Assembly: GCA_017509565.1 (NCBI GenBank) | Contig: JAFWPM010000115.1 | Coordinates: forward strand, 8,401-72,400 | Length of the DNA stretch: 64,000 bases | Origin: Kiritimatiellia bacterium | GTDB taxonomy: Bacteria > Verrucomicrobiota > Kiritimatiellia > RFP12 > JAAYLN01 | Direction of reading: 5' to 3' | In this document: piece after piece, positions 14,732 through 63,256 of the stretch | Layout: the number at the start of each line of letters is the position of its first letter | How positions within the stretch are numbered: position 1 is the stretch's first letter | Notes under the pieces: model-generated | What the model was told of the DNA's origin: nothing | The model's input: the letters and a program-made list of their open reading frames with translations, nothing else | Databases searched by the model: none | Translations under genes and position numbers: made by a program

Positions 14732-16264
14732 CTACCGCATCATGATGACAGTTGCGGTCTTGCCGATGCGGAGATTGCCGCCGGAGATTTTGGCGCCAAG
14801 GCTGTTGCCGCCTGCGCCGTTGACGCGCACGGTCCAGTTCTGGATGTTTTCGGGATTGGCGCAGTCGGCGAACGACACCGCGAGCGTGTCTTCGCCGAAT
14901 CCCTCCGCCGTCGGAGTCGCCGTGGAAAGGTCGATGACGCCCGAGGCGGCCAGCGTCGCGCCGCGGAAGGTGCCGCCGCCAGCGCCGTCCGTCACCGCGA
15001 TATGCGAAAGGACGTCGCTTCCGGCAGCCGCGCCGGAAAGGTCGAACGTCGCGCCGGACACGACGCCGACCGCGCCGCCGTCCTGCGTCAGGGAACCGCA
15101 GGAGAGGTTGCTGCCTGAGACCATGAACGAGCCGCCGGAGACGGTCACGGCGGGGAGGTTCGTCGCGACGACGGTCGCCGCACCTGCGCCCACCTTGCCA
15201 AACGACACGTCGCCGCCGACACGGCCGATCTTGAGGTCGCAGTCGCCGCCGTCCGCGCCGACGATGAGCGTCGCCGCCGTGACGGACGAATTTGTCACAG
15301 TTCCATTGAACCCGGGAGTAGCGTCGAACAGCCCATTCACGAGTTGTGTTGTCCCGCAAAGGTCGATGGTGGGGAGAGACCCCATTGATGTTCCTTTGAA
15401 CTCCATACGTCCGGTCTGGGATCCATTAGGAAGGGCGTAGTCCGCCGTCGTTTTGATCATGCAGGCGTTGGAAACGATGGTTTTTCCCGTGTGCGTCCAA
15501 AAAAACTGGTTCGTCGAAGCCGCCAGTTCAAATGCATATAATTTCCCGTTCTGGTGGTTGTAGAATACGACGTCGCAGCTGCCCTGCGTCTTGAATTTGT
15601 TGCTTCCGACAAGCAATTTCTTCGTTGTATTGTTGTTCATATACCATTGACCGACGCCGAAGTTGACCGATGCGCCGTTGATTCCCTCGAAGGCAAAGGT
15701 TGCATTTGCCATTGGATAGAACATCGAGGATGTCCCCGTCGCTACAATGGCGGCTTCCGAGCCGTCGAAAATGACGCGGGCTACGCCATTGGCATACGTT
15801 TGCCACTGATTCACCCATACACGTGAAAAGTCTCCATCGGTTCGCATTCTGCTTTGAATTCGCATGAAATCGTAATATCCAGAAGCATCCTTGACAGCGG
15901 ATCCCCCGATCACCAATTTGTTTGCGTTGAAGGCATCGTTTCCGGTGACAACGACATGTCCCTTGCCCTTGATTTCGCCAACATACAGCGTTGAACTGCT
16001 TCCAGACAAGACTATGTTTCCACCATTCGCTATGGTCAGCGTCGCTTCGGAGTCGGCCTCGCCCGGAAGATAAAGACCCTTGCCCGTTAGCGTGATCTTG
16101 CCGCCGGCCCCGATCGTGAGGTTCGCGTCATTCACGTGGACCTCGTCATACGAAACGTTCTCTGTCAGCGTCGTATCGGACGACACCGTCCAGTCGGCGG
16201 CCTTGGCCTGCCAGACGGACGAGACCGCGATGGCGGCAGCAATGGTTGCGATGCGAGGATTCAT
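14732..16264 (-). CDS. secreted PATR beta-helix protein with C-terminal ...KTATVIMMR tail
   Basis: Real start MNPRIATIAAAIAVSSVWQAKA (ATG 16262-16264, overlapping the upstream TGA). Gly/Thr/Ser/Asn-rich repeats (GGSFMVSGSN, TVSGGS). C-terminus GKTATVIMMR. Confidence 0.7.
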   Translation of the reverse strand: MNPRIATIAAAIAVSSVWQAKAADWTVSSDTTLTENVSYDEVHVNDANLTIGAGGKITLTGKGLYLPGEADSEATLTIANGGNIVLSGSSSTLYVGEIKGKGHVVVTGNDAFNANKLVIGGSAVKDASGYYDFMRIQSRMRTDGDFSRVWVNQWQTYANGVARVIFDGSEAAIVATGTSSMFYPMANATFAFEGINGASVNFGVGQWYMNNNTTKKLLVGSNKFKTQGSCDVVFYNHQNGKLYAFELAASTNQFFWTHTGKTIVSNACMIKTTADYALPNGSQTGRMEFKGTSMGSLPTIDLCGTTQLVNGLFDATPGFNGTVTNSSVTAATLIVGADGGDCDLKIGRVGGDVSFGKVGAGAATVVATNLPAVTVSGGSFMVSGSNLSCGSLTQDGGAVGVVSGATFDLSGAAAGSDVLSHIAVTDGAGGGTFRGATLAASGVIDLSTATPTAEGFGEDTLAVSFADCANPENIQNWTVRVNGAGGNSLGAKISGGNLRIGKTATVIMMR

Positions 16265-19200
16265 GGTGTTGCTCCTTGTGTTTGGATGGATTGCTGGTTT
16301 GGCGTTTGTCTCGCCGGTGTTTCTTCCCTGCCCAGATGGCCAAAGGGCGCGGCGGTCTTGGTGCCGCCGATGCCCTCCGTCCACTCCCGCCACTCGCGGG
16401 GGCCGCCATCCGAGTCGTTGACGAGGAAGTTGAAGCCGAAGGCGCGCGCGTCCGCCTTGAGCGGATAGAGCTCGCGAACCGGTATGGAAAGGTCGAAGGA
16501 GTAGCCAGACGGCGTGCGCCGGAACGCGATCTCCGCGTCCTGGACAACACCCCGGCGCGTGATGTCGTCGGGCAGTTCGGGGGTTGTGTAGTTGCGGTCC
16601 TTGTAGAGGATGTCGCGCCCGTCCGCCGTGCGCAGGAGGCGGAAGGAGGTGAAGTCCGCGCCGTCGTCGCGCGGGTCGATGGCGAACTGGATCGAATCGT
16701 TGAGCCAGCAGTTCTCCGGGCCATCTGGCGGGTCGAAGGCGTCGTCCTCGACCTCGAAGCGGAGGTGCAGGGAAGGCTGCGGACGCGCCGTGGGCGCGTC
16801 CCTACCACTTTGCGTGTGCTCTGGCAGGGACGTTTCCACGAAATGTCCGCCTAATGCCAATCTCGCCGTCGCGCCGGGAATGGCGATCGGCGGGCCGAAG
16901 GCGTCCGTTCCGAACGCGCCCCTGTGGAGCGCCTTGGATGCGGAATGGGTTTCCGAGATTTGCGCCACGGTGATGTCCCGGACTTCAATCGGCGCGCCGG
17001 CGGCCTGCTCCGAGAAGTCGGCGACGAGGACGAGGCGGAGCGTCGCGGCCTTTTCGTCCGCAATGGTGAAGGTGTCCGCGACGGTTTTCCACTCCGGCCC
17101 GGCGCGGCGGTCGCGGAGGCAGTTGAGTCCCTGCTTTCGCGGCCAGAGTTCTCCACCGTCTGCGTCATGGACGGTGACGATGCCGTCGAGGGTGCCGGCG
17201 CCTCGAATCGCGGCGGCGAAGAGATAGGTGTCGCCATAGCGGACGGGGACCGAATGGGCGACGGTCTCGAAGCGGCGTCCGCTCGCGGTGAAGGCGCGGC
17301 GTCCGGGCGGGACGAGGTTATCGCCGAGCGGATGCGTCGTGGCGGCCTCCGCCCGTGCGGCGGCGCTTTGCGCAAGGGCGGCGCGGATGGCGTCCCAGTC
17401 GCCGCCCTCGACATAGCGCGGGCGCGGCGTGGCGGGGAGGGCGAGAAGACCGTCCGCGCCGGGGGCGGCGGGCGACTCGTTGTCCATGAAGTCAACGGCC
17501 GTGAAGGACCCGCCGCCGAGCGTCGCGCGGAATGCGGCCGGGACGGAAAGCGCGTTCCAGAAGACCGTGACGGGCGTCCCGGCGCGGTCGAAGACGTATG
17601 CCTCGCATTCGCGGGTCGAGAGGTCGCCGACGTAGGCGGCGCCTTCGAGGCGGTGCGTCATGGCGCGGTAGGCGGCGAAGGCCGGGAGCGGCGCGCCGCG
17701 CACGTCGTGGAAGGAGTAGGGGCTGCCCTGGATGAAGGGCTGGAAGGCGAAGGTGCGGGAGACGCCGGCCGCCGCGTCGCGGACATGGAGCTTCACCATT
17801 GCGGAAGCGACGGCAAGCGGGCCGCTCCCGCGCTCCGAATGCCAGTCCATGTCCTCGGAATTCACGATGGCGAGGCCGGGGGCGATGGCGTCGCGCAGGG
17901 CGCGCCAGCCCGCCGCCTTGGAGGAGAAGCGCTTCGCGTTGCCGAGGTAGTGGACGCTCAGCGTGTCGAAGTCGGCGACGCCCCCGGCCGCCGCGACGGT
18001 TTCTTCTAGGAAATGCGCGTCAAGCGGGGCGCCGGGATAGACGCGGCACGCGGGGTCGGCGGCGTGGGCGGCGATGTAGGCGGTCTTGAGGTAGGCGGCG
18101 AAATCCTCCGGGCTTCCCGTGGTCCAGAATGCGCTTGTGTAGCCGGGTTCGTTTCCGATTTCCCAGTCGGAGACCCGCCCCCTGTAGCGGGAGACGAGGC
18201 GGCTCACGAAGTTCGACCAGGCGGCGAGGTCCGACGGGGCGGCCATTTTCCAGCGCGGCTCCCCGGTGACGGTGAGTTTTCCGTCCGCCGAAGGCGAGGT
18301 CCAGCGCGGGACGCCGACGACGTTCACGAGGACGCGGAGGCCGTTTTGGGCGGCCAGGTCGAGCCGTTCGTCGAGTCCGTCCCAGACGTCTCGGCCGCGC
18401 TCCGGTTCGCGGAGCGCCCAGCTCAGGTAGTGCAGGCGCGCCCATTTCGCGCCGGCGAGGCGGGCGCGGCGCAGGGCGCGCTCCGTCCTTTCGCGGCGGA
18501 GCGCGGTGTCGCGCAGGAAATAGCCGTCGCCGCCCACGGCGTGGCAGCCGAAGCGCGACGAGTCGATGAAGCCCTCCTCCGGCGGCTCCAGAACGCAGTA
18601 GGAGGTTGCGGCGGCGGCGCACTGGCGTGGCGACGACGCCTCGTCGTCGCGAAAGGCGGCGGAGACGCCGAACCAGCCGAGACGATCCGCGGGGAGCGCG
18701 GCTTCGCCATGCCCGCCCGCGATTTCCGCCTCGCCCCGGAAGACGACATTCGACGCGATGTCGCGCACCTCGTAGCGGACGAACCCCGCATCTGCGTTGG
18801 AGAGGTGCAGCGCAAGGCGGGCGTCGCCGCCGGGACGGAAAACGCCGTCGGGATCGGAGGACGCGATTTCCAGAAGCGGCTGGAACTCCGGCACGACATC
18901 GGATTCGACAAGCGCGATCGAGTCAAAGGTCACGGACTCGTGCTTGCCCGGGGAGACGACGCGGATCGTCGCGGCGTTGCGTCCGGGGGCGACGGGCATC
19001 GCGAAGTCGTAGGAAAAGCGCGGCGGCGAGCCGTCCGCGCCACGCGCGGGGATGTCGTAGAGGCGGCGGCGGCCGTCGGGGAGGGAGATTTCGACCCCGC
19101 CGGGGCCGTTTTCCGGCATGTGGCCGGCGTTGCAGCATTCGACGCGGAGGATGCGGAAACCGGGCGCGGATTCGTCCCAGAAAAGTTCGAGACCCGTCAC

Positions 19201-19551
19201 GACCTCCTCGTCGCGCATGAAGACGCTCTCGAAGACGGAGCAAATCGAGGATGGGATTCGCGACGACGGGAGCGTCGTCGCCACGGAGGGGACGGCAAAG
19301 CGCCATGTATGGGACAGGGCGTCCATCTCGGGGCTGTTCGCGACATCCGGAGCGCTCCCGTATTCCCAGGCCCGGTAAGGGAGGAACCCGGACGGCGAGC
19401 CGTCGGCCTTCCCCAGCCGCCAGATTTCGCCGCCGCGCGCGGACGAGGCGGACAAGGCGAGGAAAAGCGCGAAAGCCGCCGCCGTGAAATCGGCGGCCAA
19501 TTCGCGCCCCAACCTGCGTCTGCGTTGTCCTAGAGGTCCATTCATGCACAC
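16261..19551 (-). CDS. secreted glycoside hydrolase, GH5-like TIM barrel with C-terminal CBM9-like sugar-binding domain
   Basis: Signal-like FTAAAFALFLALSASSA. SDWEIGNEPGY (catalytic NEP). C-terminal DSIQFAIDPRDDGADFTSF...FGFNFLVNDSDGG resembles CBM9. Confidence 0.7.
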   Translation of the reverse strand: MCMNGPLGQRRRRLGRELAADFTAAAFALFLALSASSARGGEIWRLGKADGSPSGFLPYRAWEYGSAPDVANSPEMDALSHTWRFAVPSVATTLPSSRIPSSICSVFESVFMRDEEVVTGLELFWDESAPGFRILRVECCNAGHMPENGPGGVEISLPDGRRRLYDIPARGADGSPPRFSYDFAMPVAPGRNAATIRVVSPGKHESVTFDSIALVESDVVPEFQPLLEIASSDPDGVFRPGGDARLALHLSNADAGFVRYEVRDIASNVVFRGEAEIAGGHGEAALPADRLGWFGVSAAFRDDEASSPRQCAAAATSYCVLEPPEEGFIDSSRFGCHAVGGDGYFLRDTALRRERTERALRRARLAGAKWARLHYLSWALREPERGRDVWDGLDERLDLAAQNGLRVLVNVVGVPRWTSPSADGKLTVTGEPRWKMAAPSDLAAWSNFVSRLVSRYRGRVSDWEIGNEPGYTSAFWTTGSPEDFAAYLKTAYIAAHAADPACRVYPGAPLDAHFLEETVAAAGGVADFDTLSVHYLGNAKRFSSKAAGWRALRDAIAPGLAIVNSEDMDWHSERGSGPLAVASAMVKLHVRDAAAGVSRTFAFQPFIQGSPYSFHDVRGAPLPAFAAYRAMTHRLEGAAYVGDLSTRECEAYVFDRAGTPVTVFWNALSVPAAFRATLGGGSFTAVDFMDNESPAAPGADGLLALPATPRPRYVEGGDWDAIRAALAQSAAARAEAATTHPLGDNLVPPGRRAFTASGRRFETVAHSVPVRYGDTYLFAAAIRGAGTLDGIVTVHDADGGELWPRKQGLNCLRDRRAGPEWKTVADTFTIADEKAATLRLVLVADFSEQAAGAPIEVRDITVAQISETHSASKALHRGAFGTDAFGPPIAIPGATARLALGGHFVETSLPEHTQSGRDAPTARPQPSLHLRFEVEDDAFDPPDGPENCWLNDSIQFAIDPRDDGADFTSFRLLRTADGRDILYKDRNYTTPELPDDITRRGVVQDAEIAFRRTPSGYSFDLSIPVRELYPLKADARAFGFNFLVNDSDGGPREWREWTEGIGGTKTAAPFGHLGREETPARQTPNQQSIQTQGATP

Positions 19552-19807: not shown

Positions 19808-21016
19808 CTAGAGCGTGTCGCGGTTTTCGCGGCGCCATTCGGTCATGGTGACGCCCGTCACCTGCTTGAAGAGCTTGGCCAGATGGCTTTCGCGCACGAA
19901 GTTCGTCCGCTCCGTGATTTCGCCGATCGAGAGGCTGCCCGCCGCAAGCAGCGCCTTGACGCGCTCGATGCGTTCGCGGACGATCGCGTCTCGGACCGAA
20001 AAGCCCAGCTTGGCGCGGAACCGTCCTTCCAGCGTCCGCCGGGAACATCCGCTCGCGCGCACGACGGCGGCGACGTCGAGGTTCCCGTCCCCGGCGTTGC
20101 GCCGGACGAAGGCGACTGCCCGCGAAATGGCGGCATCGCTCGTGGCGGCGTAGCCTGTGCTGTCGCGCGTGACGATGCCGATGGGTGGCTGGGAAATGGC
20201 ACACTCGCGGGGCTGGCGACCGGACATGAGGTCGTCAAGCATCGCCGCAGCAATCTGGCCGCGGCGAAAGCCGCCGGTATGGATGCTTGAAAGGGACGGC
20301 ACGGTGGAGTCGCAAATCAGAGGGTCGTCGTCGACGCCCAGAACGGCGATTTCGTCCGGAACCCGAAGACCGGCGAAAAGACACGCCTCCAGCACGTTGC
20401 GGGCCCGATGGTCCGCCGGGGCGAAAACCGCCGTTTCCCGTGGAAGTTCCCTGAGGAAGCGGACCATGCGCTCCCGTTCCGTCGGCCAGTCTCGCTTTTC
20501 TCCGGCGGTGGAGGAATCGAACACCGCGAAGTCGAACCCCCGCTCCGCGAGCGCGTCGCCGAAACCGAGGCGCCGCTCGCGACTCCAGCATTCGACGCTG
20601 GGCAGATCGACGAACGCGAACGAACGGTATCCCCGCGAAACGAAATAGCGCGCCGCCATCGTGCCGATCGCGCGTCCGTCTCGCCGCACATAGGGAATGC
20701 CCCGGAGCGGATAGTCGGGATCCTCCAGTTCCGGCCCCGGTTCCACGAAAACCACCGGGACGCCCAGCGCCGCGATTTCGCGCGCGTCATCGAAGCCGGT
20801 CCTGGAGACGATGATGCCGTCGACCCCCGTTTTGGGAAAATCGGCCATCCTCTCGCCGCTCCAGCGCTCGTCAAAAAGGCAGAACCACTGACCGCTTTTC
20901 CCCACGTGGTCGAGAATGCCGAGAAACGTCGAGCGCTCCGCCTTCCTTTCCAGCGAAAACAGGATTGCGACCTTTTTCGTGCGGTTGTCTGCCATTGTCA
21001 TTGCCCTTTCAAGCAT
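19808..21016 (-). CDS. XylR-type transcriptional regulator (periplasmic-binding-protein-like sugar domain plus C-terminal AraC HTH)
   Basis: N-terminal KKVAILFS ... IIVSRTG ... AVLGVDDD (LacI/PBP-I-like). C-terminal RRTLEGRFRAKLGFSV...HLAKLFKQVTGVTMTEWRR (AraC HTH). The start is chosen at MLERAMTMADN. Confidence 0.75.
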   Translation of the reverse strand: MLERAMTMADNRTKKVAILFSLERKAERSTFLGILDHVGKSGQWFCLFDERWSGERMADFPKTGVDGIIVSRTGFDDAREIAALGVPVVFVEPGPELEDPDYPLRGIPYVRRDGRAIGTMAARYFVSRGYRSFAFVDLPSVECWSRERRLGFGDALAERGFDFAVFDSSTAGEKRDWPTERERMVRFLRELPRETAVFAPADHRARNVLEACLFAGLRVPDEIAVLGVDDDPLICDSTVPSLSSIHTGGFRRGQIAAAMLDDLMSGRQPRECAISQPPIGIVTRDSTGYAATSDAAISRAVAFVRRNAGDGNLDVAAVVRASGCSRRTLEGRFRAKLGFSVRDAIVRERIERVKALLAAGSLSIGEITERTNFVRESHLAKLFKQVTGVTMTEWRRENRDTL

Positions 21017-21047
21017 GGCTGGCCCTCCCTGGACCCGCGAACTGCAC

Positions 21048-22676
21048 CTATGCCTTCTCAATGATCGGGATGTCGATGTTGCGCTTCTTGGAGGAGAAGT
21101 TGATGCCAATCAGCGTCACGGGACGCTTGCCGCCCTTCCACTTGTCGGCGTAGCCGCGCTCGCGGATCTGCCGCATCGCGGCCTCCGGCGATTCGTCGTA
21201 TTTGAACTCGAAGACGTAAACGGCATCCGGACGCTGGACAATGGCGTCGGCGTAGCCGCGCGCAGAGGGGAACTCCGGCGCGGGGTCGGCCCCGAGCATG
21301 GCGAAGAAGAGCTGGAAGTAGCGCTTCGCCTCGGATTCGTTCGCAATCCGCCAGTCCGGAGGAATCTGCGCGTAAAGCGAGAAGAGCATCGTCTCCACCA
21401 CTTCGCGGATGTCGCCGGCGGCGATGAGGCGTCTGGCCCGGTCGATGAGAGTTTCCCAAGAATCGTCCGGGAATCCGAGAATCCGGGAAACGTAGCCATC
21501 GCGCAGCGAATGGCGGATTTCCTCGTTCGGCGGCGCGAGACGGTAGGTGTCGGTGGCGGCGACGCCCTTGTCCTCTGGCTTGTCGGAGTGGAAAACCTCC
21601 TTAATCGTCAAGTAGCCGCTCTGGTAAAGTAGCGCTTCAATGGGTAGCGTCTCGGCGTCGCACACATCGAGTTGAATCGGGCGGACACGGACATTCTCCA
21701 GATCGTCCGGCATCTTGCCGACGGCCTTGATGCGGTTGAAGATGAGGGTCGAGCCGCCGGTAGCCTCCCAGTAACTCTTGAACACACCACCGCCGGGTGA
21801 GAAGAGTTTGCCGAGCGAGACTGGATTCACGACACGCGCTTCTGTTTGCGGTGAAAAGCGATAGCCGTCGAACCATTTGAGAATCTTGTCTCTGGTTGAC
21901 TCAAAGTCCTGACCTAGTTTTTTCGCAAGAGCCTCGACATTCTCGCGAAGCGCACCGTCAATTTCGGAATGCGTGTAGCCAAGGAGTGTTGCGAAGCGAG
22001 CATCGTCCGACAAGTCCGTGAGGTGCGTAAGACCCGAGAAGACCGAGAGTTTCGTGAGCTTTGTCACGCCCGTCATCATCAAAAAGCGGATGACGTCGGA
22101 ATTGATCTTCAGTTTCTCGTAGAAGTCGTGTAGAAGTTTACGAACGCGCTTCAATTCCCCGATGTCATCCAGAAACCCTGCCACCGGCTCGTCATACTCA
22201 TCGACAAGAACAACGATTTTCTTCGTCGGCGAGAGTTCTGCGGCAGCCTTCAGGAATTTGGAGAACTTGCCGGGAATCGTGCCCTTGGAGGGAATGGCGA
22301 GTCCCGCCTGTTCATAAAGTCCATCGACGATTTCCCCAAGCTGCTCCTTGACCTCGGCGTAGGAGTCGCCGTTGGCGTTGGACATCGTGAAGGAATAAAC
22401 GGGTGTCGGCGCAGTCCATCCCTCCCAATCTTCCTTGTCGATCGCCAGCCCCTTGAAAAGGTCCCTCCGCCCCTCGAACATCGCCTGAATCGTGGAGAGC
22501 ATGAGCGACTTGCCGAAGCGGCGCGGGCGAGAGATGAAATACTGGGCATCCTCTTCCTTCCGGGCGAGTTCGTAAAGAATGCCGGTCTTGTCCACATACT
22601 TCGTTTCCTTGCCATTGATCAGGGTCGGGAAGTCGTGGACTCCGGTGGTCAGTTCCTGGATTCTGCGTTTCGCCAT
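21048..22676 (-). CDS. AAA-ATPase_like (PF09820-type) protein with C-terminal PD-(D/E)xK nuclease-like domain
   Basis: KYVDKTGILYEL...YFISRPRRFGKSLMLSTIQAMFEGRRDLFKGLAI is the family N-terminal signature. C-terminal DAVYVFEFKYDESPEAAMRQIRERGYADKW. GC is lower than the neighbours. Start at MAKRRIQELTTG. Confidence 0.8.
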   Translation of the reverse strand: MAKRRIQELTTGVHDFPTLINGKETKYVDKTGILYELARKEEDAQYFISRPRRFGKSLMLSTIQAMFEGRRDLFKGLAIDKEDWEGWTAPTPVYSFTMSNANGDSYAEVKEQLGEIVDGLYEQAGLAIPSKGTIPGKFSKFLKAAAELSPTKKIVVLVDEYDEPVAGFLDDIGELKRVRKLLHDFYEKLKINSDVIRFLMMTGVTKLTKLSVFSGLTHLTDLSDDARFATLLGYTHSEIDGALRENVEALAKKLGQDFESTRDKILKWFDGYRFSPQTEARVVNPVSLGKLFSPGGGVFKSYWEATGGSTLIFNRIKAVGKMPDDLENVRVRPIQLDVCDAETLPIEALLYQSGYLTIKEVFHSDKPEDKGVAATDTYRLAPPNEEIRHSLRDGYVSRILGFPDDSWETLIDRARRLIAAGDIREVVETMLFSLYAQIPPDWRIANESEAKRYFQLFFAMLGADPAPEFPSARGYADAIVQRPDAVYVFEFKYDESPEAAMRQIRERGYADKWKGGKRPVTLIGINFSSKKRNIDIPIIEKA

Positions 22677-25339: not shown

Positions 25340-26100
25340 TTTGCTTGCCACTCTTGGAGGATGGTCCGCCAGCGGGCCTTGTCAGCGTCGCTTGCGAAGG
25401 GGGCGTGGAACCAGTCCGTTCGGCCAAGCCGGCGGTTCTTGTCCTCGCCCATCGGATGGTAGGGCTCGATGTCAATGCGGACGATGCCGGGCGTCGTCTC
25501 GGACAGACGCCGGATATGGCGTAGCGCCTCGTTCGAGTCGTTCACGCCCGGAACGAGCGGGCACCGCAGGACGACCGATGCTCCGCGCGAGGAGAGAAAG
25601 GCGAGATTGTCGAGGATCGGTTCGGCGGGACACCCCACGAGCTTTTCATGGAGGGATGGCGGCGCCTTGACGTCCCAGAGCCACAAGTTGACGAGAGGCA
25701 GCAGCGCCTCGATGCGTTCGCGCGGCGCATAACCCGATGTCTCGACCGCCGTATGGATGCTCTCCGTCTTCGCGGCGGCGAGAAGCGCGCGTGTGAACTC
25801 GAAGTGCGCCAGCGGTTCGCCGCCGCTGATGGTGAGCCCGCCGCCTGAATTGTCGTAGAAGGCCTTGTCCTTGCGGACGCTTGCCATGACCTCCTCGACG
25901 GTCATGGCTTTGCCGACGATTTCCGGTGGCCCTCCGTTCTCGCCTGCCATCGTCTCCTGCTCGAAGGACTGCGATTCCGGGTTGTGGCACCAGAGGCAAC
26001 GCAACGGGCAGCCTTTCAGAAAAACGACCGTCCGGATTCCCGGCCCGTCGTGGACCGCGAACTTCTCGATGTCGAAGACGATGGCAATTTCGTCGCTCAC
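25327..26100 (-). CDS. glycyl-radical enzyme activating protein (radical SAM, PflA-type)
   Basis: VFLKGCPLRCLWCHNPES (CxxxCxxC), a glycine-rich SAM motif, and a second Cys-rich stretch. GTG start 26098-26100 overlaps the glycyl-radical enzyme stop (GTGA). Confidence 0.85.
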   Translation of the reverse strand: MSDEIAIVFDIEKFAVHDGPGIRTVVFLKGCPLRCLWCHNPESQSFEQETMAGENGGPPEIVGKAMTVEEVMASVRKDKAFYDNSGGGLTISGGEPLAHFEFTRALLAAAKTESIHTAVETSGYAPRERIEALLPLVNLWLWDVKAPPSLHEKLVGCPAEPILDNLAFLSSRGASVVLRCPLVPGVNDSNEALRHIRRLSETTPGIVRIDIEPYHPMGEDKNRRLGRTDWFHAPFASDADKARWRTILQEWQAKNEQ

Positions 26101-36150: not shown

Positions 36151-36183
36151 TGGCAAAAGTCAAGCGATTCCCTTCAATGGCAG

Positions 36184-36213
36184 TGTCAATAGATTGTGTG
36201 TCCCTTTATGCAC
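36184..36213. repeat. 30-bp dispersed repeat, copy R2 (TGTCAATAGATTGTGTGTCCCTTTATGCAC)
   Basis: Identical to R3, in direct orientation 200 bp away. Confidence 0.7.
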
Positions 36214-55486: not shown

Positions 55487-58080
55487 GATATGGCATGAAT
55501 GCCGGGACCGAATTCGCGGGGCGGGAGGCCGGGGGCGATCACGGTTGCTGATGTGCCGCGCGGGATTGTGAAGCGCCATGTCCAGGTTGCGCCGCCATCG
55601 CCATAGCGCCAGGCGCTTTCGATTTCGCCACATGGCGAGCGGTGGCGCGCCGTTACGTGGCCGACGCGCCGGTCCGGCAGCGGCGCAAGGATGAAGTGGC
55701 GGAATCCCGGGTTCCCCGGATCCTCGCGTATCCCAGCCATGTGCGACATCATCCACGCGAAGACCGCGCCGTATGCGTAGTGGTTCAGCGAATTGCCGCC
55801 CGCCCCGGGATGGAGTCCGCGTTCGCGGCTGTAGGCGTCCCAGCGCTCCCAGACCGTGGTCGCGCCCTGCACGACTGGGGACAGCCAGGACGGGCATTCG
55901 CGCTGCAACAGCAGCGAGTAGGCGAGGTCGGGCGCGGCGGCTTCATCTGAGAGGACGTCAAGAATCATCGATGTGCCAAGAAAGCCGGTCTGGAGTCGGC
56001 ATCCGTGGGCGCGGATGTTTTCAAGCAGGGCGTCGCGCGTGGCGTGGGCCGGAGCCGGGTCGAGAAGGCGGAGGCGGAGCGCGAAGAGCGCCGGAGTCTG
56101 CATGCCGCGGAATGGACGGAGGAGGAGACCGTCTGCGGGATCCACGAAGTTTTCGCGGATGTACGCGAGCGCGCGGGTGGCCATGTCGGAGTATTTGCGG
56201 GGCGCAGTGGCCCCGCGCCACGAGACTGGGGGCGCGGGGGCCACGCATGGAGATGCTTGGGGCGCAGAGGCCCGTGCCATCTCCGCCATCATGCGCGCGT
56301 CCATGAGCCAGTGGCAACACCCGAGATAGCGCCACAGGAGCAGGGCGTCCGGTTTAACCGGCGGGACGTTTTTCACCCCGCCGACATAGGCGCGTCCGCT
56401 GCATGTCTCCAGCGCTTCGAACGAAAGCCAGTCGGCCCACTGGTGTTCCAGGGCCTGCGGCGAGGCGAACTTCATGTTGTCCACAAGCGCGACATACCGC
56501 TCCATGGCGTCCCAGTTCTCCTCGACAATGCGACGGTCGCCGAAGTGGCGCCATACGGTGTATGGGACGATTACGCCGGCGTCGGCCCATCCGAACTGGT
56601 GCTCGTTCGCGCCGACGCGGCCCGGCGGCGCGACGCCCGGGAATCCGCCGTCGGGGTTCTGGCTGTCGCGCATGTCGCGCATCCACTTGCGCAGGAAGTC
56701 CCGGACATCGGCGTTGTAGCAGGCGGCCTTGGCGAACACCTGCGTGTCGGCCGTCCAGCCAAGGCGCTCCGCGCGCTGGGGGCAGTCAGTCGGGATCGAG
56801 AGGTAGTTCGAGCGCTGGCTCCATAGGATGTTCGAGACAAGGCGGTTCAGCTCCGGGACGCCGGTTTCGAGATGCGCGGTCTCGGCGTCGGCGTGGATGG
56901 ACGACACGGGGATCCAGCGGACACGGCGTATTTCCACCGGGCCGTCGGCGGCGACGGAGAGGTAGCGGCCCCCGAAGTACGTGAACGACGGGCGGTGGCG
57001 CTCCTCTCCGGCGCCGGCGAAGGTGTAGCGCAGCAGCGAGCGGGCGCCGAGGTAGTTGGAGGTGTAGGCGGAGCCTTCCGGGCCGTCGCAGCCGCGCGAC
57101 TTCGCGCCGTTGCCGTCGTTGAGCAGTTCGGCGGGCCGCGCGGAGAGGGTGGTGCCACGCTGCGCCGAGAAGACGAACTCCGGCACCGCCGCGCAGTTCT
57201 GCCCGAAGTCGAGGACGAGCGTTTCGCCGGGGATTATTGCAATCGGCTGCAATCGGCTGCAATCGAACACAGTCGTTTTTACTACCGTGCCGAAGTGGCC
57301 GGCGTCGGCGCCCGTGACGCCGCGCCAGGCGTAGGCCGCGACGGGGGCCATCGCGAGGTCGTGGCGCAGCGCGACGCAGGGCCCCTCCATCGGGACGATG
57401 GCGCCGGAGAACTCGGTGTTTTCGACGGCTGGCGAAAATGATTTTCCAACGCGGAGACGCAGAGACGCGGAGTCCGCAAGAACCTTGTGCCTCTTTGTGT
57501 TCTTTGTGGCCAAAGATTCCCTCCATGACGGGGCAAGCCGCGCGTCGTAGTCCTCGCCGTCGTAGATGCCGGCGCGCAGCACGGGGCCGGCGGCGCCGGA
57601 GGCGAGCCAGGTGGCGTCGGTGCCGACGCGCGTCTCGGTGCCGTCGGGGTGGCGCAGTACGAGGACGGCGCGGAATGCCGAGCGCTTGCCGCGGAAGAGG
57701 ACGACGCGGTCGCGCCACCACCCTGAGGAGACGTATGCGCCGAAGCGGTTTTCCTCGCCTGCGCCGGTGCGGATGAGGCGCGTGATGTCGTAGCGGAAGG
57801 CGTGGCGGGTCTTGGCGAAGTGCGTGTAGCCGGGCTTGAGGAAGTCGTCCGCGCCGACTTCGGCGCCGTTCGCGAAGGCGCGGAAGACGCCGAGGCCGGT
57901 CATGTTCCAAAAGGCCCCGGCGACGGGCTTCCCGTTGCGCACCGTCTTTTCGAACCAGGCGGTGCCGTCCTCGGGCTCGCGCTTGCCGGCGTAGGGGTCT
58001 TCGTCAGGACTGCGCACGGGCGAATCCGCCGCGCTTATCCAGATGGAGCCGTCGAAGTCGGAGTGGCGTGGGCTTTTCAT
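55462..58080 (-). CDS. alpha-L-rhamnosidase (GH78) with an in-frame RPE-like insertion and repeat-derived C-terminus
   Basis: IPTDCPQRAERLGWTADTQVFAKAA is the GH78 signature, and the protein is 872 aa. The insert LATKNTKRHKVLADSASLRLRVGKSFSP is encoded by E3. The last six codons plus stop (KGQTSY) come from repeat R5. The ATG overlaps the upstream TGA (ATGA). Confidence 0.85.
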   Translation of the reverse strand: MKSPRHSDFDGSIWISAADSPVRSPDEDPYAGKREPEDGTAWFEKTVRNGKPVAGAFWNMTGLGVFRAFANGAEVGADDFLKPGYTHFAKTRHAFRYDITRLIRTGAGEENRFGAYVSSGWWRDRVVLFRGKRSAFRAVLVLRHPDGTETRVGTDATWLASGAAGPVLRAGIYDGEDYDARLAPSWRESLATKNTKRHKVLADSASLRLRVGKSFSPAVENTEFSGAIVPMEGPCVALRHDLAMAPVAAYAWRGVTGADAGHFGTVVKTTVFDCSRLQPIAIIPGETLVLDFGQNCAAVPEFVFSAQRGTTLSARPAELLNDGNGAKSRGCDGPEGSAYTSNYLGARSLLRYTFAGAGEERHRPSFTYFGGRYLSVAADGPVEIRRVRWIPVSSIHADAETAHLETGVPELNRLVSNILWSQRSNYLSIPTDCPQRAERLGWTADTQVFAKAACYNADVRDFLRKWMRDMRDSQNPDGGFPGVAPPGRVGANEHQFGWADAGVIVPYTVWRHFGDRRIVEENWDAMERYVALVDNMKFASPQALEHQWADWLSFEALETCSGRAYVGGVKNVPPVKPDALLLWRYLGCCHWLMDARMMAEMARASAPQASPCVAPAPPVSWRGATAPRKYSDMATRALAYIRENFVDPADGLLLRPFRGMQTPALFALRLRLLDPAPAHATRDALLENIRAHGCRLQTGFLGTSMILDVLSDEAAAPDLAYSLLLQRECPSWLSPVVQGATTVWERWDAYSRERGLHPGAGGNSLNHYAYGAVFAWMMSHMAGIREDPGNPGFRHFILAPLPDRRVGHVTARHRSPCGEIESAWRYGDGGATWTWRFTIPRGTSATVIAPGLPPREFGPGIHAISTKGQTSY
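57431..57511. repeat. palindromic RPE-like element, copy E3, in-frame inside the GH78 gene (81 nt, 27 codons)
   Basis: CCAACGCGGAGACGCAGAGACGCGGAGTCCGCAAGAACCTTGTGCCTCTTTGTGTTCTTTGTGGCC. The right arm is identical to E2 (CTTTGTGTTCTTTGTGGC). Confidence 0.7.
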
Positions 58081-60659
58081 TTGAGGATGGCAAGGTCCTT
58101 CACAAAGAGCGAGCAGCGCGTCCCGCGCGGGTTCGCGCCGATGCGGATCGCCCTGACGGCAGCGGTGTCAAGTCCGGGCGGGAGGAAGACGCGGCGCCGC
58201 TCCCACGCCCCGGTCGGGGCGTCGTATGGGATGAAGACATCGGGGCGGCCGTCGCCATAAACGAGCATCACGTACTGCGACTTGAAGTCGTTCTCCACCT
58301 TGTCCTGCTCGCTGCGGATGTCGAACTCGATGCGCCGTGCGCCGGCCAGGCTTTCGCCGGGCGCGAGATCGCGGACAGGGTACATCCAGCGGTCGGATGC
58401 GGCGCTCTCCCAGGACGCGTCGAAGCGGATGGCGTCGCCGGAGACGGAGATTCCCTGCGCGTCGCCGGAGGAGTTGCGGCGCCAGAGCGCCGGGTCGCCC
58501 CACGGCAGCCCCACCCGCTCGCATGTGGCGACGAAGTCCTTCTCGAAGAGGAGGTTCATCGCGAGGCGGGAGACCGGGCGGCCGCCGAAGGCGCCGGAGA
58601 GGACGAGGGCGGAATCCGGCGGCGTTTCCGCCGCCGCGCCGGACTCCCGGCTGACTTCGCAGTCGAAGACCGCGGGGCCCTCGGTGTATGGCGGCACCGC
58701 GAAAGGCGCGGCGGGGAGGCCGGAGACGGCCGCGCCGGAGGCTTCGACGACGCCCGTCTTCACGGAGTCGGAGAAGTTCCAGACCTCGATTGCGGCGCGG
58801 CCGGCGTCGCCCTTCACAACGGCGATGGTCTTGCGGCCTGAAATCTCGAAGTCCTCGCGGCTTGGCCGGATGCGCAGGACGATGGAGAGATCCTGAACGG
58901 ACGGCGCCGCCTCGGCAAAACCGGCATTGGAACGGGGGACGATTGCCGGCTCAAGCCCGCCGAGGCCCGAGAGGAAGGAGGGGAAGCGCGTGGCCGGGAG
59001 GGCGAGCGCGCCGTTGGCGTCAGGCGCCACCGTTGAGACGCCGCCGCACATGTCCACGAGGCGGAACGTTTCCTCACGCGGAGTCGCAGAGGCGCAGGGA
59101 TTTTTTGCCTCGCCCTGTGCCTCTGTGCCTCTGTGTGACATTCCTGGAACGGCAAACCGCCACTCACGCGCGTAGTCGGGTTCGGCGGGGACGACGCCGT
59201 CGCGGGCCGTGTCCACGGGCGATTCGCTCCAGAAGGCGACGGTCTGCGAGCCGTCGGGCTGCGCGTAGAGGAACGCGCGGATGCCGGTCGGCGCGTCGAG
59301 CGCGCCGAGAAGGCGCGCGGAGCCGAGCTCGCGGTTCATCGTGGCGAGCGCGGAGAATACCGGCTTCACGGTGCCGTCGCGGCGGATGACGCCCCAGTCC
59401 TTGCGGCCGCCGCGCTCGTCGTAGGCGCCGAAGACGAAGAAGAAGGACCGCTCCACGCCCTCCATCTGGAAGGATATCTGCGCCTTGGCGCAGCATTCGG
59501 CCTGGATCAGCTCCTGATCCGGCGAGTGGGCCTTGCGCCCCTCCATGACGCCGTCCTTTTCCGGCAGGCCCTCAAGCTCCGTGCCGAATTCCGTGACCCA
59601 GACGGGCTTGTTGGCCGCGCCGGCGGCGGCGAGCTTTTCGCGCACCAGGCGGAACGTCCCGGCATGCTTCGAGACGGGGACGTAGGTGTGGTAGTTGAAG
59701 ACGTCAAAGTAGTCGGCCGCGCCGTTCGCGAGGAGGGCGTCATGGTATGGCGAACTCTGCGGCGGCAGGCTCAGCGCGCCGTTCAGCACGGTGACGCCGG
59801 GATTGCCGGCCCTGAAGCCAAGCGCGGCGACCTTAAACGCGGCGGCATAGTCCCAGACCGGCTCCGGCGCGAAGGCGAGATCCGGCTCGTTCCAGAACTC
59901 CCAGTCGTCCATGCAGTCGCCAAAAGCCGCGGCGGCGCTCCGGCAGAATTCGTAGAGGGCGGGGATGTCGGTGGGGAGGCGTCCGGCAGGGAGCGCCCAG
60001 GCGGGGGAGTCGTGGAACATCCCGGAGACGCCGATGCCGAGGGCTCGGAGCATTTGCGCGTTGGCGAGGTAGCGGCCGAAGTCGGGCGGCGCGTCGCCGG
60101 AGGGCTGGACATGGCGCCAATGGAGGCGGTCGCGCACATGGCGGAAGCCGGCCAGGCTCAGCAGGCCGGCGACGGTGCGCTCCGTGTCGCCGCCGTTCCA
60201 CGGGCAGAGGAAGGCGCCGCGCCGGGAGATAGAGGAAAGGGCCGTGTCGGCGGCGAAAGGCCCCCCCTCCGCCCCCCTGCCGGGGGGGACGTGCGCGCTC
60301 GCAGAGCGCGCACCTTCACTGAGGCTTGCAAGAGTGGCGAGGATTTCATTGCCGTTGTCCGCTTGCTGCTTTCCGATCATCCGCCAGTAGCCGGCGGGGA
60401 GGGGCGGGAGGGTGGCGCGGCCGTCGGCGTCAAAGGCGCCGGAGAGGCCGGTGTCGCGGCCGCGCCAGTCAACGATGCGCCATGCGGCGCCAGGCTCGCC
60501 GCCACTTGCCGAGACCGCCGCGCCCTCGGAGGCGGCGTGGCCGGGGGCGTCAAGGACGACACCAATGGGAGGGCCGGCCTCTGTGCCGGCCGCAGAGGCC
60601 GCTACGGAGCGCAGCCCTCCCGCCGCCACAAGCGCCAGGCACAATGCAAGCCGCTTCAT
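58077..60659 (-). CDS. secreted glycoside hydrolase (GH-A clan TIM barrel, GH5/GH39-like) with in-frame RPE-like insertion
   Basis: Signal peptide MKRLALCLALVAAGGLRSVAASAA. DDWEFWNEPD and KPVWVTEFG (acid/base and nucleophile-type motifs). The insert SHRGTEAQGEAKNPCASATP is encoded by E4. Confidence 0.65.
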   Translation of the reverse strand: MKRLALCLALVAAGGLRSVAASAAGTEAGPPIGVVLDAPGHAASEGAAVSASGGEPGAAWRIVDWRGRDTGLSGAFDADGRATLPPLPAGYWRMIGKQQADNGNEILATLASLSEGARSASAHVPPGRGAEGGPFAADTALSSISRRGAFLCPWNGGDTERTVAGLLSLAGFRHVRDRLHWRHVQPSGDAPPDFGRYLANAQMLRALGIGVSGMFHDSPAWALPAGRLPTDIPALYEFCRSAAAAFGDCMDDWEFWNEPDLAFAPEPVWDYAAAFKVAALGFRAGNPGVTVLNGALSLPPQSSPYHDALLANGAADYFDVFNYHTYVPVSKHAGTFRLVREKLAAAGAANKPVWVTEFGTELEGLPEKDGVMEGRKAHSPDQELIQAECCAKAQISFQMEGVERSFFFVFGAYDERGGRKDWGVIRRDGTVKPVFSALATMNRELGSARLLGALDAPTGIRAFLYAQPDGSQTVAFWSESPVDTARDGVVPAEPDYAREWRFAVPGMSHRGTEAQGEAKNPCASATPREETFRLVDMCGGVSTVAPDANGALALPATRFPSFLSGLGGLEPAIVPRSNAGFAEAAPSVQDLSIVLRIRPSREDFEISGRKTIAVVKGDAGRAAIEVWNFSDSVKTGVVEASGAAVSGLPAAPFAVPPYTEGPAVFDCEVSRESGAAAETPPDSALVLSGAFGGRPVSRLAMNLLFEKDFVATCERVGLPWGDPALWRRNSSGDAQGISVSGDAIRFDASWESAASDRWMYPVRDLAPGESLAGARRIEFDIRSEQDKVENDFKSQYVMLVYGDGRPDVFIPYDAPTGAWERRRVFLPPGLDTAAVRAIRIGANPRGTRCSLFVKDLAILK
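59079..59138. repeat. palindromic RPE-like element, copy E4, in-frame inside the hydrolase gene (60 nt, 20 codons)
   Basis: CGCGGAGTCGCAGAGGCGCAGGGATTTTTTGCCTCGCCCTGTGCCTCTGTGCCTCTGTGTGAC. The left arm is homologous to E3, and the arms are complementary. Confidence 0.65.
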
Positions 60660-60673
60660 GAAAACCGGCGCCG

Positions 60674-63256
60674 CTACCGCAACACCATCACGAAGGCGTT
60701 GATGTGGCGGAGATATACGCCGTTGCTTTCGTATTTGACCGCCCAGTCGTCCGGCCAGTCTGCGGCAAGCTGGAACTGCCCGGTGTACTTGCTCGTCGTG
60801 ATGCGGTAGAAATTATTTGCGGCGTTCTTGTCAAACGTCGAGGGGTCGGCCATCGAGAGCGTGATGCCGGAGATGTCCTGGTTGTCGGAGTATGGGCCGG
60901 AGGTACCGCTGAAGGCCACCTTGCCGCAGCCCGTCGCGTCGCCGGCGATTTCAAGCGTCGCGTTGGACAGGTCGCAGGTTTCGTAGAAGGTTATCGTGCC
61001 GCCGATGCTCGGCGCGATCCTGCCGTTTACGACTACCTTGCCGCAGTAGTTGAGAGTGCCGCTGCCTTCGATTCCGCCGAGCGTCGCCGCCGTGCGGGTG
61101 TGATTGGCTTGCTTCTCGGCGTCAGTGTTGCCCGTTCCGTCGTACTTGCAGAAGCCGACTTGGCCGCCGTTCCTCAGAACGAGCGTCGTCCCGGCGGGGA
61201 GCAGGTTGTCGCCTCCGCGCTGCTGGAGGGCGGCACCATCGACAGTCGTCGGGCCGTTGTACGAGCAGGGAACCATCAGGATCGCGGCGCCGGACGAACC
61301 TGTCCTCCGCACGATCATGCCGCCGTCAGGAACGCCCTCCGTGGCTGTGACGAGCGGCTTGCGCCACCAGATGTTCTTCCCGTTGGAGTTGTCCAGCACC
61401 GCACCGCCCGGACCGACCGCGAACTTGACGCCTTCCCACTTGGCGTAAGTTGGCGACGTGAACAGTGCGTCGTTCCCGTCTGCGCTTTGGATCGCGCCGC
61501 CGTCGAAGAGGAACGTCACGTCGATGTTGTTGGAATCGTTCGCCCACAAATACAGCTGCTTGACGCGGAGAAGCCCGCCGGTCGCCAGACGGGCGACCGT
61601 AGGCCCGCCAGTCACATTCTGGCCCATGCGGAAATTGCCGACTTCCAGGACGCCGCCGTCCCGTATCGTGGTGAGACTGGCGCTACCGTGCGCGTTGCAC
61701 CAGTGGGAGTTCGGCATCGAAACGGTGCCGCCGCAGATGTCCGCGTGGCCACCGCTTTGGATGGTCGCATAGCTCGTGCCGGTCTGCGGGGCGAGAATCA
61801 GCGCGCCGTCCTGGACGGCGAGGTTGCCCGTGACGTGGATCAGGGCCGTGTCGGAACCCGTGCCGCTGACACCGGAAGTCACGCGCGTGACGCCGCTCGT
61901 CACTTCGAGATTGCCGGCGACGACCAGCCTCCCGACGTCGTTCGTGCGGTTTTCGCCAGGGCCGATGACCGTGGTTCCGGCGTAGTCGCCGGGCACTTGG
62001 ACGTATGTGTTCGTCGGATAGTCCAGTCCGCCGACCGCTTCGCCCTTGATTTCGCCGCCGATCACGAGCTTCGCATTCTCGGCCGCCGCGACGATGAAGG
62101 GCTTCCCGTTGGCAATCGAGACATTGCGGTTGGGGTTGACTGCAAGCGTCGGGGTTGTGGAATTGTATTGGGCGTAGAGAGTGTGGTTGGCACCTGTCAC
62201 GAAGATGTTTGCCTCCGGCGTCTCCGGGACGGCCCCGAAGACCGAGTCGCCGTATGCCGGGTTGACCTTGAGCATTGCACCGCTGCTGGACTCAAGCCAT
62301 ACGCCGCCGTTGAACGCAGAACCTTGTGCATACCACTGCGGCGAGCCTTTGCCGAGGAAATGGACGCCGCCGTCCTTTTCGCCAGCACCGGCGCCGCTCC
62401 AGAAGGCGGGCTGGACAATCGTGTTCGCAACGTCGGTGCTGATGTAGCATCCCCCGGCACAAACAGTGGGGGAGACCGTGTTTTCGCCCCATGTCGTAGT
62501 CAGGCCATTGCCGAAAAGGTTTCCACCGGCGTTGGATGCGTAAAGGATGCCTCCGTCAAACCAAATCCGTCCGTAATAAGCGGAGTTGGCATCCAGGAAG
62601 AACTGCTTTGCCAAATGGACGGCGCCACCCCTGTTCAGGCGGAGGCCCGTCGTTTCCTTTACGGCCTGGATGCCCCGCGTACCGCTCGACGCCGGACGGA
62701 TGTAGTTCGCCTTGAGGATGCCGCCCTCGCCAACCACGACCTCGCTGCCGCCGGAGCCGACGCCGCCGTGTGCGATCATGAAGTTGGCGCCAAGGCCGGT
62801 GGCGTCGAAAGTCGCGTTCGTGATAGTGAATGTTCCTCCGCGGAAATTCGCATAGCTACCGCCGCCGAACGAGACTTGCGCCCCGCCGTCGATGAGGATG
62901 GACTGCGCGCCTGTCTCGCTCTCCATGACGCACGAGCCGACGCCAGTGCCCGTCGCGGTCGAGTCGGAGATCGTGGTGGAGCCGCCGGAGATGTGGAGCG
63001 AACCGGCGGAGACGCGCAGACGCTTGAGCGAATTGGCGCCATTCAGTTCGAGCGTGCCGTCGCCGGTCTTGACGGTGGCGGAGGTCTCCGTGACGCCGGT
63101 GTGCGTGTCGGTGGCGCCGGCGGCGACGTCGTGCGTGTCCGCGAGCGCCGCCGGTGCGGCGGCGAGCATTATCGCGGTCGTGGCGATCAAGTAGCGTGAA
63201 GTCTTCATTGCGGTTCCTCGTTTTGGGTGCTTGACAATGAGTGTGGCCGACGGCAT
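60674..63256 (-). CDS. secreted PATR beta-helix protein (860 aa) with C-terminal hydrophobic-Arg tail ...INAFVMVLR
   Basis: Signal peptide MKTSRYLIATTAIMLAAAPAALA. G/T/S/N-rich beta-strand repeats (GGTITFYETCDLSNATLEIAG etc.). Confidence 0.7.
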   Translation of the reverse strand: MPSATLIVKHPKRGTAMKTSRYLIATTAIMLAAAPAALADTHDVAAGATDTHTGVTETSATVKTGDGTLELNGANSLKRLRVSAGSLHISGGSTTISDSTATGTGVGSCVMESETGAQSILIDGGAQVSFGGGSYANFRGGTFTITNATFDATGLGANFMIAHGGVGSGGSEVVVGEGGILKANYIRPASSGTRGIQAVKETTGLRLNRGGAVHLAKQFFLDANSAYYGRIWFDGGILYASNAGGNLFGNGLTTTWGENTVSPTVCAGGCYISTDVANTIVQPAFWSGAGAGEKDGGVHFLGKGSPQWYAQGSAFNGGVWLESSSGAMLKVNPAYGDSVFGAVPETPEANIFVTGANHTLYAQYNSTTPTLAVNPNRNVSIANGKPFIVAAAENAKLVIGGEIKGEAVGGLDYPTNTYVQVPGDYAGTTVIGPGENRTNDVGRLVVAGNLEVTSGVTRVTSGVSGTGSDTALIHVTGNLAVQDGALILAPQTGTSYATIQSGGHADICGGTVSMPNSHWCNAHGSASLTTIRDGGVLEVGNFRMGQNVTGGPTVARLATGGLLRVKQLYLWANDSNNIDVTFLFDGGAIQSADGNDALFTSPTYAKWEGVKFAVGPGGAVLDNSNGKNIWWRKPLVTATEGVPDGGMIVRRTGSSGAAILMVPCSYNGPTTVDGAALQQRGGDNLLPAGTTLVLRNGGQVGFCKYDGTGNTDAEKQANHTRTAATLGGIEGSGTLNYCGKVVVNGRIAPSIGGTITFYETCDLSNATLEIAGDATGCGKVAFSGTSGPYSDNQDISGITLSMADPSTFDKNAANNFYRITTSKYTGQFQLAADWPDDWAVKYESNGVYLRHINAFVMVLR

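Follow-up and report, generated by a model that had tools for sequence, protein, structure and literature searches.

A 64,000-nucleotide stretch of a Kiritimatiellia bacterium genome (GenBank assembly GCA_017509565.1, contig JAFWPM010000115.1, positions 8,401 to 72,400 of the forward strand; "the window" below) encodes three exported β-helix proteins that end in a related peptide of seven residues. We find that this tail is a real, conserved, strictly terminal and fixed-length motif, and that it is a robust, undescribed and narrowly distributed feature. The tail may be a recognition peptide, used for docking or sorting, that a shared component of the cell envelope reads in trans and binds by strand addition, a reading of the sequences to which we give slightly less than an even chance. 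The window has a G+C content of about 65% and its closest protein matches are hypothetical proteins from metagenome-assembled genomes (MAGs) of Kiritimatiellae from ruminant gut samples. Kiritimatiellae are abundant, mainly uncultured polysaccharide degraders of the rumen and gut.

Translation of three minus-strand open reading frames (ORFs) confirms the C-termini GKTATVIMMR, KPKATTVIMR and INAFVMVLR that had been read in a preliminary description of this DNA. A Sec-type signal peptide whose cleavage site is Ala-x-Ala-like begins all three proteins; none has a lipobox cysteine, which leaves them without a lipid anchor. P0001, a hypothetical protein from a Kiritimatiellae bacterium MAG (IKH04_04890), matches protein 1 at 100% identity, as P0049 matches protein 2. 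The proteins, their tails and a larger C-terminal module described below are placed in the window as follows.

14732-16264, minus strand: tail protein 1, 510 residues; signal peptide MNPRIATIAAAIAVSSVWQAKA with cleavage before AD; C-terminus ISGGNLRIGKTATVIMMR (GKTATVIMMR), then the stop codon
14735-14755, minus strand: seven-residue tail of protein 1, A-T-V-I-M-M-R; stop codon at 14732-14734
14735-14926, minus strand: C-terminal module of protein 1, the last 64 residues (...NWTVRVNG...ISGGNLRIGK plus the tail), from alignments and a profile search
31332-32948, minus strand: tail protein 2, 538 residues; signal peptide and β-helix with marginal PATR repeats; C-terminus QPGATVLTKPKATTVIMR (KPKATTVIMR), then the stop codon
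31335-31355, minus strand: seven-residue tail of protein 2, A-T-T-V-I-M-R; the TGA stop is shared with the ATG of the next gene (ATGA)
60674-63208, minus strand: tail protein 3, 844 residues; signal peptide and long right-handed β-helix; C-terminus DWAVKYESNGVYLRHINAFVMVLR (HINAFVMVLR), then the stop codon
60677-60697, minus strand: seven-residue tail of protein 3, A-F-V-M-V-L-R; stop codon at 60674-60676
60677-60868, minus strand: C-terminal module of protein 3, the last 64 residues (...YRI...YTGQF...DWPDDWAVKYESNGVYL plus the tail)

Among the approximately 37 likely genes of the window that we examined, only these three encode the tail, and they are also the sole β-helix proteins there. Five further proteins with signal peptides lack it: a 1096-residue and an 860-residue protein that both resemble glycoside hydrolases (GHs), a BNR protein, a 744-residue protein of unknown function and a PEGA protein. 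The preliminary description had labeled the three carriers PATR proteins, which holds in part. Protein 2 passes TIGR02601 (22.2 bits, cut-off 19.85) and falls below PF12951 (17.7 against a Pfam gathering score of 27); proteins 1 and 3 have no PATR match themselves, and PF12951 is found in some homologues of proteins 2 and 3.

Homology searches with the three proteins returned 13, 35 and 47 homologues, down to 31-33% identity. Absence of the tail from orthologues, a possibility raised in the preliminary description, was not what we observed: the tail is kept in nearly every full-length homologue of all three proteins (13 of 13 for protein 1). About 190 homologues from Kiritimatiellae MAGs and metagenomes, covering the three families and their relatives, yielded 170 non-redundant tails, from which we derive the general motif [G/A/P]-[T/F/L/M]-x-[I/L/V/M]-Phi-[V/I/F/L/M]-[R/K]-COOH. 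Position -7 is G in 64%, A in 27% and P in 7% of these tails (98% in total), position -6 is T, F, L or M, and position -5 is variable. Position -4 is I, L, V or M in 96%, position -3 is mainly I or V, and position -2 is V, I, F, L or M in 98%. Arginine closes 81% of the tails and lysine 11% (92% R/K); the others end in Q, Y, F, W, L or E, with aromatic residues at about 4%. Positions -6, -4 and -2 form a hydrophobic face. Arginine, lysine and aromatic residues favor membrane-water interfaces. A shared tail thus exists, as first proposed, but the consensus K-x-A-T-x-V-I-M-(M)-R under which it was proposed is too specific.

None of the 170 tails has a C-terminal extension beyond the last tail residue, and the last eight alignment columns contain zero indels. 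By percentile of seven-residue windows (32nd-42nd), conservation of the seven tail columns is close to the average for the folded core. Orthologous genes, including the gene for protein 1 and its orthologue at the related locus L010, differ by synonymous codons within the tail (for example GCA/GCG, ACT/ACC and CGG/CGC/CGA), which argues that the constraint is on the peptide and not on the DNA. We considered a DNA-level constraint, such as translational coupling to the next gene, as the force that shaped the tail and rejected it, since both spacing and codons vary among genes and orthologues.

We identified the same tail on proteins that are not β-helices. The related DNA that we collected (approximately 410 kb) came from GTDB genomes, JGI metagenomes and contigs encoding homologues; a profile scan of genome contigs contributed six loci, and the metagenome scan used alignment A4. 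At least four non-β-helix proteins in this collection carry the tail, and a signal peptide is visible in three of them. A linker, Pro-rich or polar, precedes the tail of the LamG and phosphatase-like proteins.

L005:2292-4478: protein with tandem (two) DUF2341 plus LamG domains; signal peptide; C-terminus RENSDATLISIR
L002:1462-3186 and L043:1698-3416: purple-acid-phosphatase-like metallophosphoesterase, two orthologues; signal peptide; C-terminus ...EKPNEPPTPF[D/G]VSIR
L018:4867-6960, minus strand: 697-residue protein of unknown function; signal peptide; C-terminus ...SRGMQIIFR
L048:2-2089: partial 695-residue protein of unknown function, N-terminus missing; C-terminus ...TTGFVMMIR

The preliminary description had also considered that the tail might be no commoner than composition predicts. 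We compared terminal with internal occurrences of the motif, written as a strict regular expression, in the 259 non-redundant ORFs that 412 kb of related DNA provided. The motif occurs at a rate of 1.7e-4 per internal position, so that 0.044 terminal hits would be expected, and 23 were observed. Four of the 23 are independent carriers that were not seeds of the analysis and are not β-helices (Poisson P = 1.5e-7).

One of these carriers also bears on how tail-bearing proteins are assembled. The 697-residue protein at L018:4867-6960 (minus strand) contains a tandem domain of unknown function that recurs as the N-terminal part of a 1011-residue PATR β-helix tail carrier at L048:19474-22509 (minus strand), with 24% identity over 279 residues. 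Domain shuffling among tail-bearing proteins thus takes place.

The predicted structures of proteins 2 and 3 are consistent with a tail that lies outside the fold. AlphaFold2 models built on the family alignments are right-handed β-helices for both protein 3 (predicted local distance difference test, pLDDT, 91; predicted TM-score, pTM, 0.84) and protein 2 (pLDDT 89, pTM 0.87). In the protein 3 model, the final strands (W823-E828 and G831-H836) form a hairpin, after which residues 837-845 (INAFVMVLR) are coil with a pLDDT of about 62. In the protein 2 model, the final strand covers residues 525-528. The coil that follows (529-538, KPKATTVIMR) has a pLDDT of 54, falling below 50 in the last three residues. 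In both models the terminal nine to ten residues are unpaired and the tail is left out of the predicted monomer fold. A conserved run of five hydrophobic residues that goes unplaced in a confidently predicted model is unlike an ordinary buried terminal strand. In a Foldseek search of the PDB with protein 3, the top matches were the autotransporter passengers Ag43, TibA, EspP and pertactin, followed by PL6 lyases and phage tailspikes, all with low TM-scores.

In many carriers the tail closes a larger C-terminal module. This module of 60-100 residues is common to families 1 and 3 and the long members (870-910 residues) of family 2, and follows the pattern ...Y-K-I-v...y-x-G-x-F...W-x-V-x-Y/V...G-x-Y/L-L/V...tail. 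The module of protein 1 is homologous to those of protein 3 and the long family-2 forms. Protein 2 of the window and other short family-2 proteins are without it: the W-x-V module is absent, and the helix (...G-G-T-V-L-P-x-P) runs directly into the tail. We searched a module profile (alignment A2) exhaustively against 1.84 billion cluster representatives at E ≤ 1e-3 and obtained 127 matching proteins, 119 of which were new relative to earlier searches. We set aside 19 of the 119 as unrelated repeat proteins with several weak partial matches each; the other 100 are genuine and full-length, and in all 100 the module reaches the protein's final residue or stops within one residue of it. The module is thus rare, narrowly distributed and strictly terminal. 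For the 132 carriers recovered in the protein searches with a length of 440 residues or more, BLAST links the N-terminal parts into one β-helix superfamily.

PATR proteins from other lineages have other elements at their ends. The metagenome scan with family 2 also returned such proteins, and those at L025, L035, L036 and L042 end in PEP-CTERM (L025 in VPEPASLAALGLGALALLRRRKGSKG) and that at L040 ends in an autotransporter barrel (...NFSFSF), whereas the seven-residue tail closes the Kiritimatiellae-like PATR proteins at L017, L028, L029, L031 and L041. The tail is thus located where similar passenger-like proteins of other lineages bear known sorting or anchoring devices. No model in Pfam or NCBIfam (release 20.0) covers it, in searches with whole proteins (NCBIfam E ≤ 0.01) or with isolated C-termini (E ≤ 10), and full-text literature searches returned no description of it.

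The tail fails the defining features of PEP-CTERM, LPXTG, the C-terminal domain (CTD) of type IX secretion system (T9SS) substrates, the autotransporter barrel and the β-signal of outer membrane proteins. This agrees with the preliminary description, which had called it too short for the first two and unlike the C-domains of the next two; no corresponding model matches and the motifs are absent. PEP-CTERM (TIGR02595) similarly sits at the extreme C-terminus of Sec-exported PATR-type β-helix proteins, in the Planctomycetes-Verrucomicrobia-Chlamydiae group and other bacteria, and has the same order of signature, hydrophobic and basic elements. It differs in spanning about 25 residues with a PEP motif, a membrane-spanning helix and an Arg/Lys cluster, where the tail has seven residues and a single, final basic residue. 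The PEP motif is absent from the last 40 residues of the three window proteins and their homologues. The hydrophobic run of the tail is three to five residues long and is followed by one terminal R/K, with no transmembrane helix of about 20 residues and no Arg/Lys cluster. Neither TIGR02595 nor a related NCBIfam model matched at the thresholds given above, and no exosortase was seen in about 85 kb of this genome (the window plus loci L012 and L014). An LPXTG-like motif and a transmembrane helix are both absent from the tail proteins.

The remaining systems resemble the tail in other respects. T9SS CTDs are folded β-sandwiches of 70-100 residues, found on glycan-degrading and adhesin proteins of Bacteroidota and related phyla, in which a hydrophobic strand is closed by a basic residue and a G-x-Y-type strand comes before it. 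The T9SS CTD (TIGR04183) is strictly C-terminal like the tail, but the tail has only seven residues, is unfolded in the predictions and is found on protein 2 with no accompanying domain, and neither TIGR04183 nor a type-B CTD model matched in NCBIfam or Pfam. The outer membrane protein β-signal, which is read by the β-barrel assembly machinery, shares a fixed C-terminal position, alternating hydrophobic residues, a constrained last residue and presumed β-augmentation. In contrast to the tail, which ends in R/K in 92% of cases and in an aromatic residue in about 4% and is carried by soluble, barrel-less β-helices, the β-signal is the last strand of a barrel and ends in an aromatic residue, usually Phe. 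Type Va autotransporters have passengers that are right-handed β-helices with PATR repeats. A comparable helix is predicted for the tail proteins, with PATR repeats that are marginal in protein 2, and the best PDB fold matches of protein 3 named above belong to this group, but the tail proteins lack the 12-strand translocator (PF03797) and stop 9-10 residues past the last helix strand. We found no β-barrel domain in the tail proteins, either by Pfam scan or in the AlphaFold2 models. Ligands of PDZ domains and pilus chaperones are short extended C-terminal peptides that are bound by strand addition with recognition of the free carboxylate, and the known bacterial ones end in hydrophobic or aromatic residues and not in Arg. 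The tail is like them as a short terminal peptide and unlike them in its terminal Arg, and no partner of either kind was identified.

Each tail gene of the window sits in a minus-strand gene cluster of common layout. At the head is a hybrid regulator with a periplasmic-binding-protein-like (PBP-like), sugar-binding domain and an AraC helix-turn-helix (HTH) domain, and the gene for the tail protein comes first or second among the structural genes. After the tail gene come exported or cytoplasmic glycoside hydrolases (GH42-like, GH28, BNR, α-L-rhamnosidase and MGH1-like) and a glycyl-radical enzyme with its activase.

19808-21109, minus strand: cluster A regulator, PBP-like plus AraC-HTH; heads the GH-like gene at 16261-19551, tail protein 1, GH28, BNR and GH42
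34795-36057, minus strand: cluster B regulator, PBP-like plus AraC; heads an ATPase, tail protein 2, the exported 744-residue protein of unknown function, an SDR, the glycyl-radical enzyme plus activase and an MGH1-like GH
63349-64000, minus strand: cluster C regulator, PBP-like plus AraC, 3' part; heads tail protein 3, the exported 860-residue GH-like protein and an α-L-rhamnosidase

The arrangement of cluster A is repeated in L010, and the cluster C regulator is complete in L012 (391 residues), where it lies directly upstream. More broadly, the tail-cluster arrangement recurs in L007, L010, L012, L043, L045, L049 and L050. Because clusters of this common layout recur with glycoside hydrolases, the tail proteins are probably glycan-binding or glycan-capturing components of polysaccharide-utilization clusters, as judged from gene context.

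Several details of these clusters were noted along the way. The hybrid PBP-like/AraC regulator heads every tail-protein cluster (the three in the window and those of L007, L010, L012, L043, L045 and L050), and an ATPase_2/AAA_14-type ATPase gene often follows it; the regulator and the cluster design look like a recurrent layout of Kiritimatiellae polysaccharide-utilization loci. Neither SusC/D-like nor TonB-dependent receptor genes occur in the glycan-utilization clusters examined. The genes lie close together: protein 2 has a stop codon that overlaps the start of the gene after it (ATGA; 31332-31338), a 14-nucleotide gap separates tail protein 3 from the next ATG (60659-60676), and the upstream GH-like gene runs into the start of tail protein 1 (16261-16264). 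In cluster B, the glycyl-radical enzyme (PFL-like plus Gly_radical domains) and its radical-SAM activase lie at 25327-28226 (minus strand), between the SDR and the MGH1-like GH, which suggests anaerobic radical chemistry on a sugar-derived substrate.

The genes beside the tail genes point to no partner. No sortase-like enzyme, PDZ protein, outer membrane protein or secretion component recurs next to them; the window and the flanking or related loci held regulators, ATPases, GHs and housekeeping genes only. The large exported proteins encoded in the same clusters share no common receptor domain, the only similarity being a weak GH-like one between the products of 16261-19551 and 58077-60659. 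The organism does encode a BamA homologue (POTRA repeats plus Omp85, 800 residues; L014:15780-18182), about 5 kb to the left of the window start and adjoining fatty-acid synthesis and glycosyltransferase genes. The cell therefore has an outer membrane, that is, a diderm envelope.

A further group of carriers joins the tail to a regulator. Five cluster representatives (at 50% identity) that contain the module are in-frame fusions (P0129, P0152, P0161, P0164 and P0197), in which an extracytoplasmic function (ECF) sigma-70 factor (regions 2 and 4) is followed by a transmembrane helix, a Pro/Ser linker, an internal signal-peptide-like segment, a PATR β-helix and the tail. One such fusion is encoded at L047:9867-12572 (NCBI assembly GCA_016282515.1), among GH127, α-amylase-like and rhamnosidase genes, and no regulator gene is found among the called genes of this GH cluster. 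The fusion is either a one-chain sigma/anti-sigma/sensor protein or a gene with a nested second start.

We favor the docking or sorting reading because the tail is conserved, of fixed length and hydrophobic-faced, ends in R/K with a free carboxylate, lies outside the fold, occurs on several architectures and is absent from other exported proteins of the same clusters. Recognition in trans, β-augmentation and a purpose in surface sorting or tethering are what we infer from these properties. The carriers are Sec-exported proteins of a rumen and gut clade of Kiritimatiellae, mostly passenger-like β-helix proteins from glycan-utilization clusters. Once a carrier has reached the periplasm, a shared component of the envelope would bind its free strand of seven residues, which ends in a carboxylate, most plausibly by β-strand augmentation, and the protein would be routed to, or tethered at, the outer membrane or cell surface. 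The tail would then substitute for the PEP-CTERM, autotransporter barrel or T9SS CTD of passenger-like proteins in other phyla. The stronger proposal that [G/A]-[T/F/L]-x-Phi-Phi-Phi-Arg-COOH defines a new class of bacterial C-terminal sorting or tethering signal, which has neither a transmembrane helix nor a folded domain and displays or docks glycan-capturing β-helix and other exported proteins through a dedicated envelope receptor and strand addition, is one that we put forward only tentatively on the sequence evidence.

Several points weigh against a docking or sorting role. The carriers belong mostly to the one β-helix superfamily (132 carriers in a single BLAST component), and the conservation of the tail could largely reflect common descent. 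The co-occurring sortase or processing protease that the preliminary description suggested looking for did not turn up, nor did a candidate receptor, in the window or in the roughly 410 kb of related loci. Low AlphaFold confidence does not prove a free strand, and the tail may pair within an oligomer. Finally, the tail of a sigma-factor fusion, if this is one chain, would be periplasmic, which does not suit a pure outer-membrane export signal and fits docking reachable from the periplasm or regulated proteolysis. The initial suggestion of an undescribed sorting or docking tag is thus partly supported: the tail is terminal, of fixed length, outside the fold and portable, while its motif had been over-specified and the PATR label applies to only part of the carriers.

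Two other functions would also account for a conserved terminal strand. The tail could be a structural or oligomerization strand of the C-terminal cap that, through strand swapping or donor-strand complementation, builds dimers, trimers or fibers and has no sorting role. We consider this unlikely, even though most carriers are related β-helix proteins, the fold matches include trimeric tailspikes and the self-associating Ag43, the tail follows a β-hairpin with alternating hydrophobic residues that suit a sheet strand, and intermolecular pairing would be invisible in AlphaFold monomer models. Non-homologous proteins without the hairpin module have the tail as well, after a Pro-rich or polar stretch in the phosphatase-like and LamG carriers, as do the short family-2 proteins, which are also without the module, and a strand that served packing alone would tolerate C-terminal extensions, of which the 170 tails offer no instance. 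Somewhat more doubtful in our view is a role as ligand of a PDZ-type envelope protein in proteolysis or signaling, for example a Prc/Ctp or HtrA-family protease that controls turnover. PDZ domains read C-terminal strands by β-augmentation, and FecR-like anti-sigma factors undergo site-1 cleavage by Prc-type proteases. Such a reader would be suited by a hydrophobic peptide that is free, strictly terminal and constant in length, and the fusions of ECF sigma factor, transmembrane segment, β-helix and tail take the place that an AraC-type regulator usually has in GH clusters; in these forms a protease could trigger regulated proteolysis that switches the glycan-utilization cluster on. However, a terminal Arg/Lys is atypical, as known bacterial PDZ ligands generally favor a hydrophobic last residue, most carriers have no sigma domain, and no PDZ protein was seen near the genes.

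Two further explanations would deprive the tail of novelty or of function. A degenerate or miniaturized tripartite signal, of the PEP-CTERM/exosortase, LPXTG-like or GlyGly-CTERM-like kind, is suggested by the PEP-CTERM found in the same place on PATR proteins of other lineages and by the shared order of a small motif, hydrophobic residues and a basic end. We judge it very improbable: there is no PEP, LPXTG or GG motif, a run of three to five residues cannot span a membrane, only one basic residue is present, and no NCBIfam or Pfam model was hit at E ≤ 10. That the resemblance arises from chance or composition, or that the tail is an inert ending specific to its family, is strongly disfavored and seems to us the least credible account. 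The motif is short, hydrophobic residues and Arg are common in a genome of 65% G+C, and a few alternative-frame ORFs have similar ends. Against this stand the excess of terminal over expected hits, the lack of any length variation, the retention of the tail down to 31-33% identity and its presence on unrelated exported proteins.

The LPXTG, PEP-CTERM, GlyGly-CTERM and T9SS CTD signals have each guided the discovery of dedicated machinery and are routinely used to predict surface proteins. If the docking or sorting reading is true, the seven-residue tag would allow a defined group of exported proteins to be predicted by a simple rule on sequence and would offer a handle for finding its receptor, by phylogenetic profiling or peptide pull-down, and it would be a far smaller signal than any described C-terminal sorting domain. 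If the tail is only an oligomerization strand, it would be a family feature of modest interest.

Some minor features of the window lie apart from the tail genes. No tRNA genes were found in the window. A low-G+C island (51% against about 65%) extends over 36100-40100 and contains a 469-residue ORF (37326-38735, minus strand) with no Pfam hit and no obvious signal peptide; this ORF ends ...CIVPLVYLR, which is tail-like but lacks G/A/P at position -7. Beyond the island, at 40194-42907 on the plus strand, the gene for an FHA-domain protein precedes that for an exported protein with a CarboxypepD_reg domain and four PEGA domains, and this pair is seemingly unrelated to the glycan clusters.

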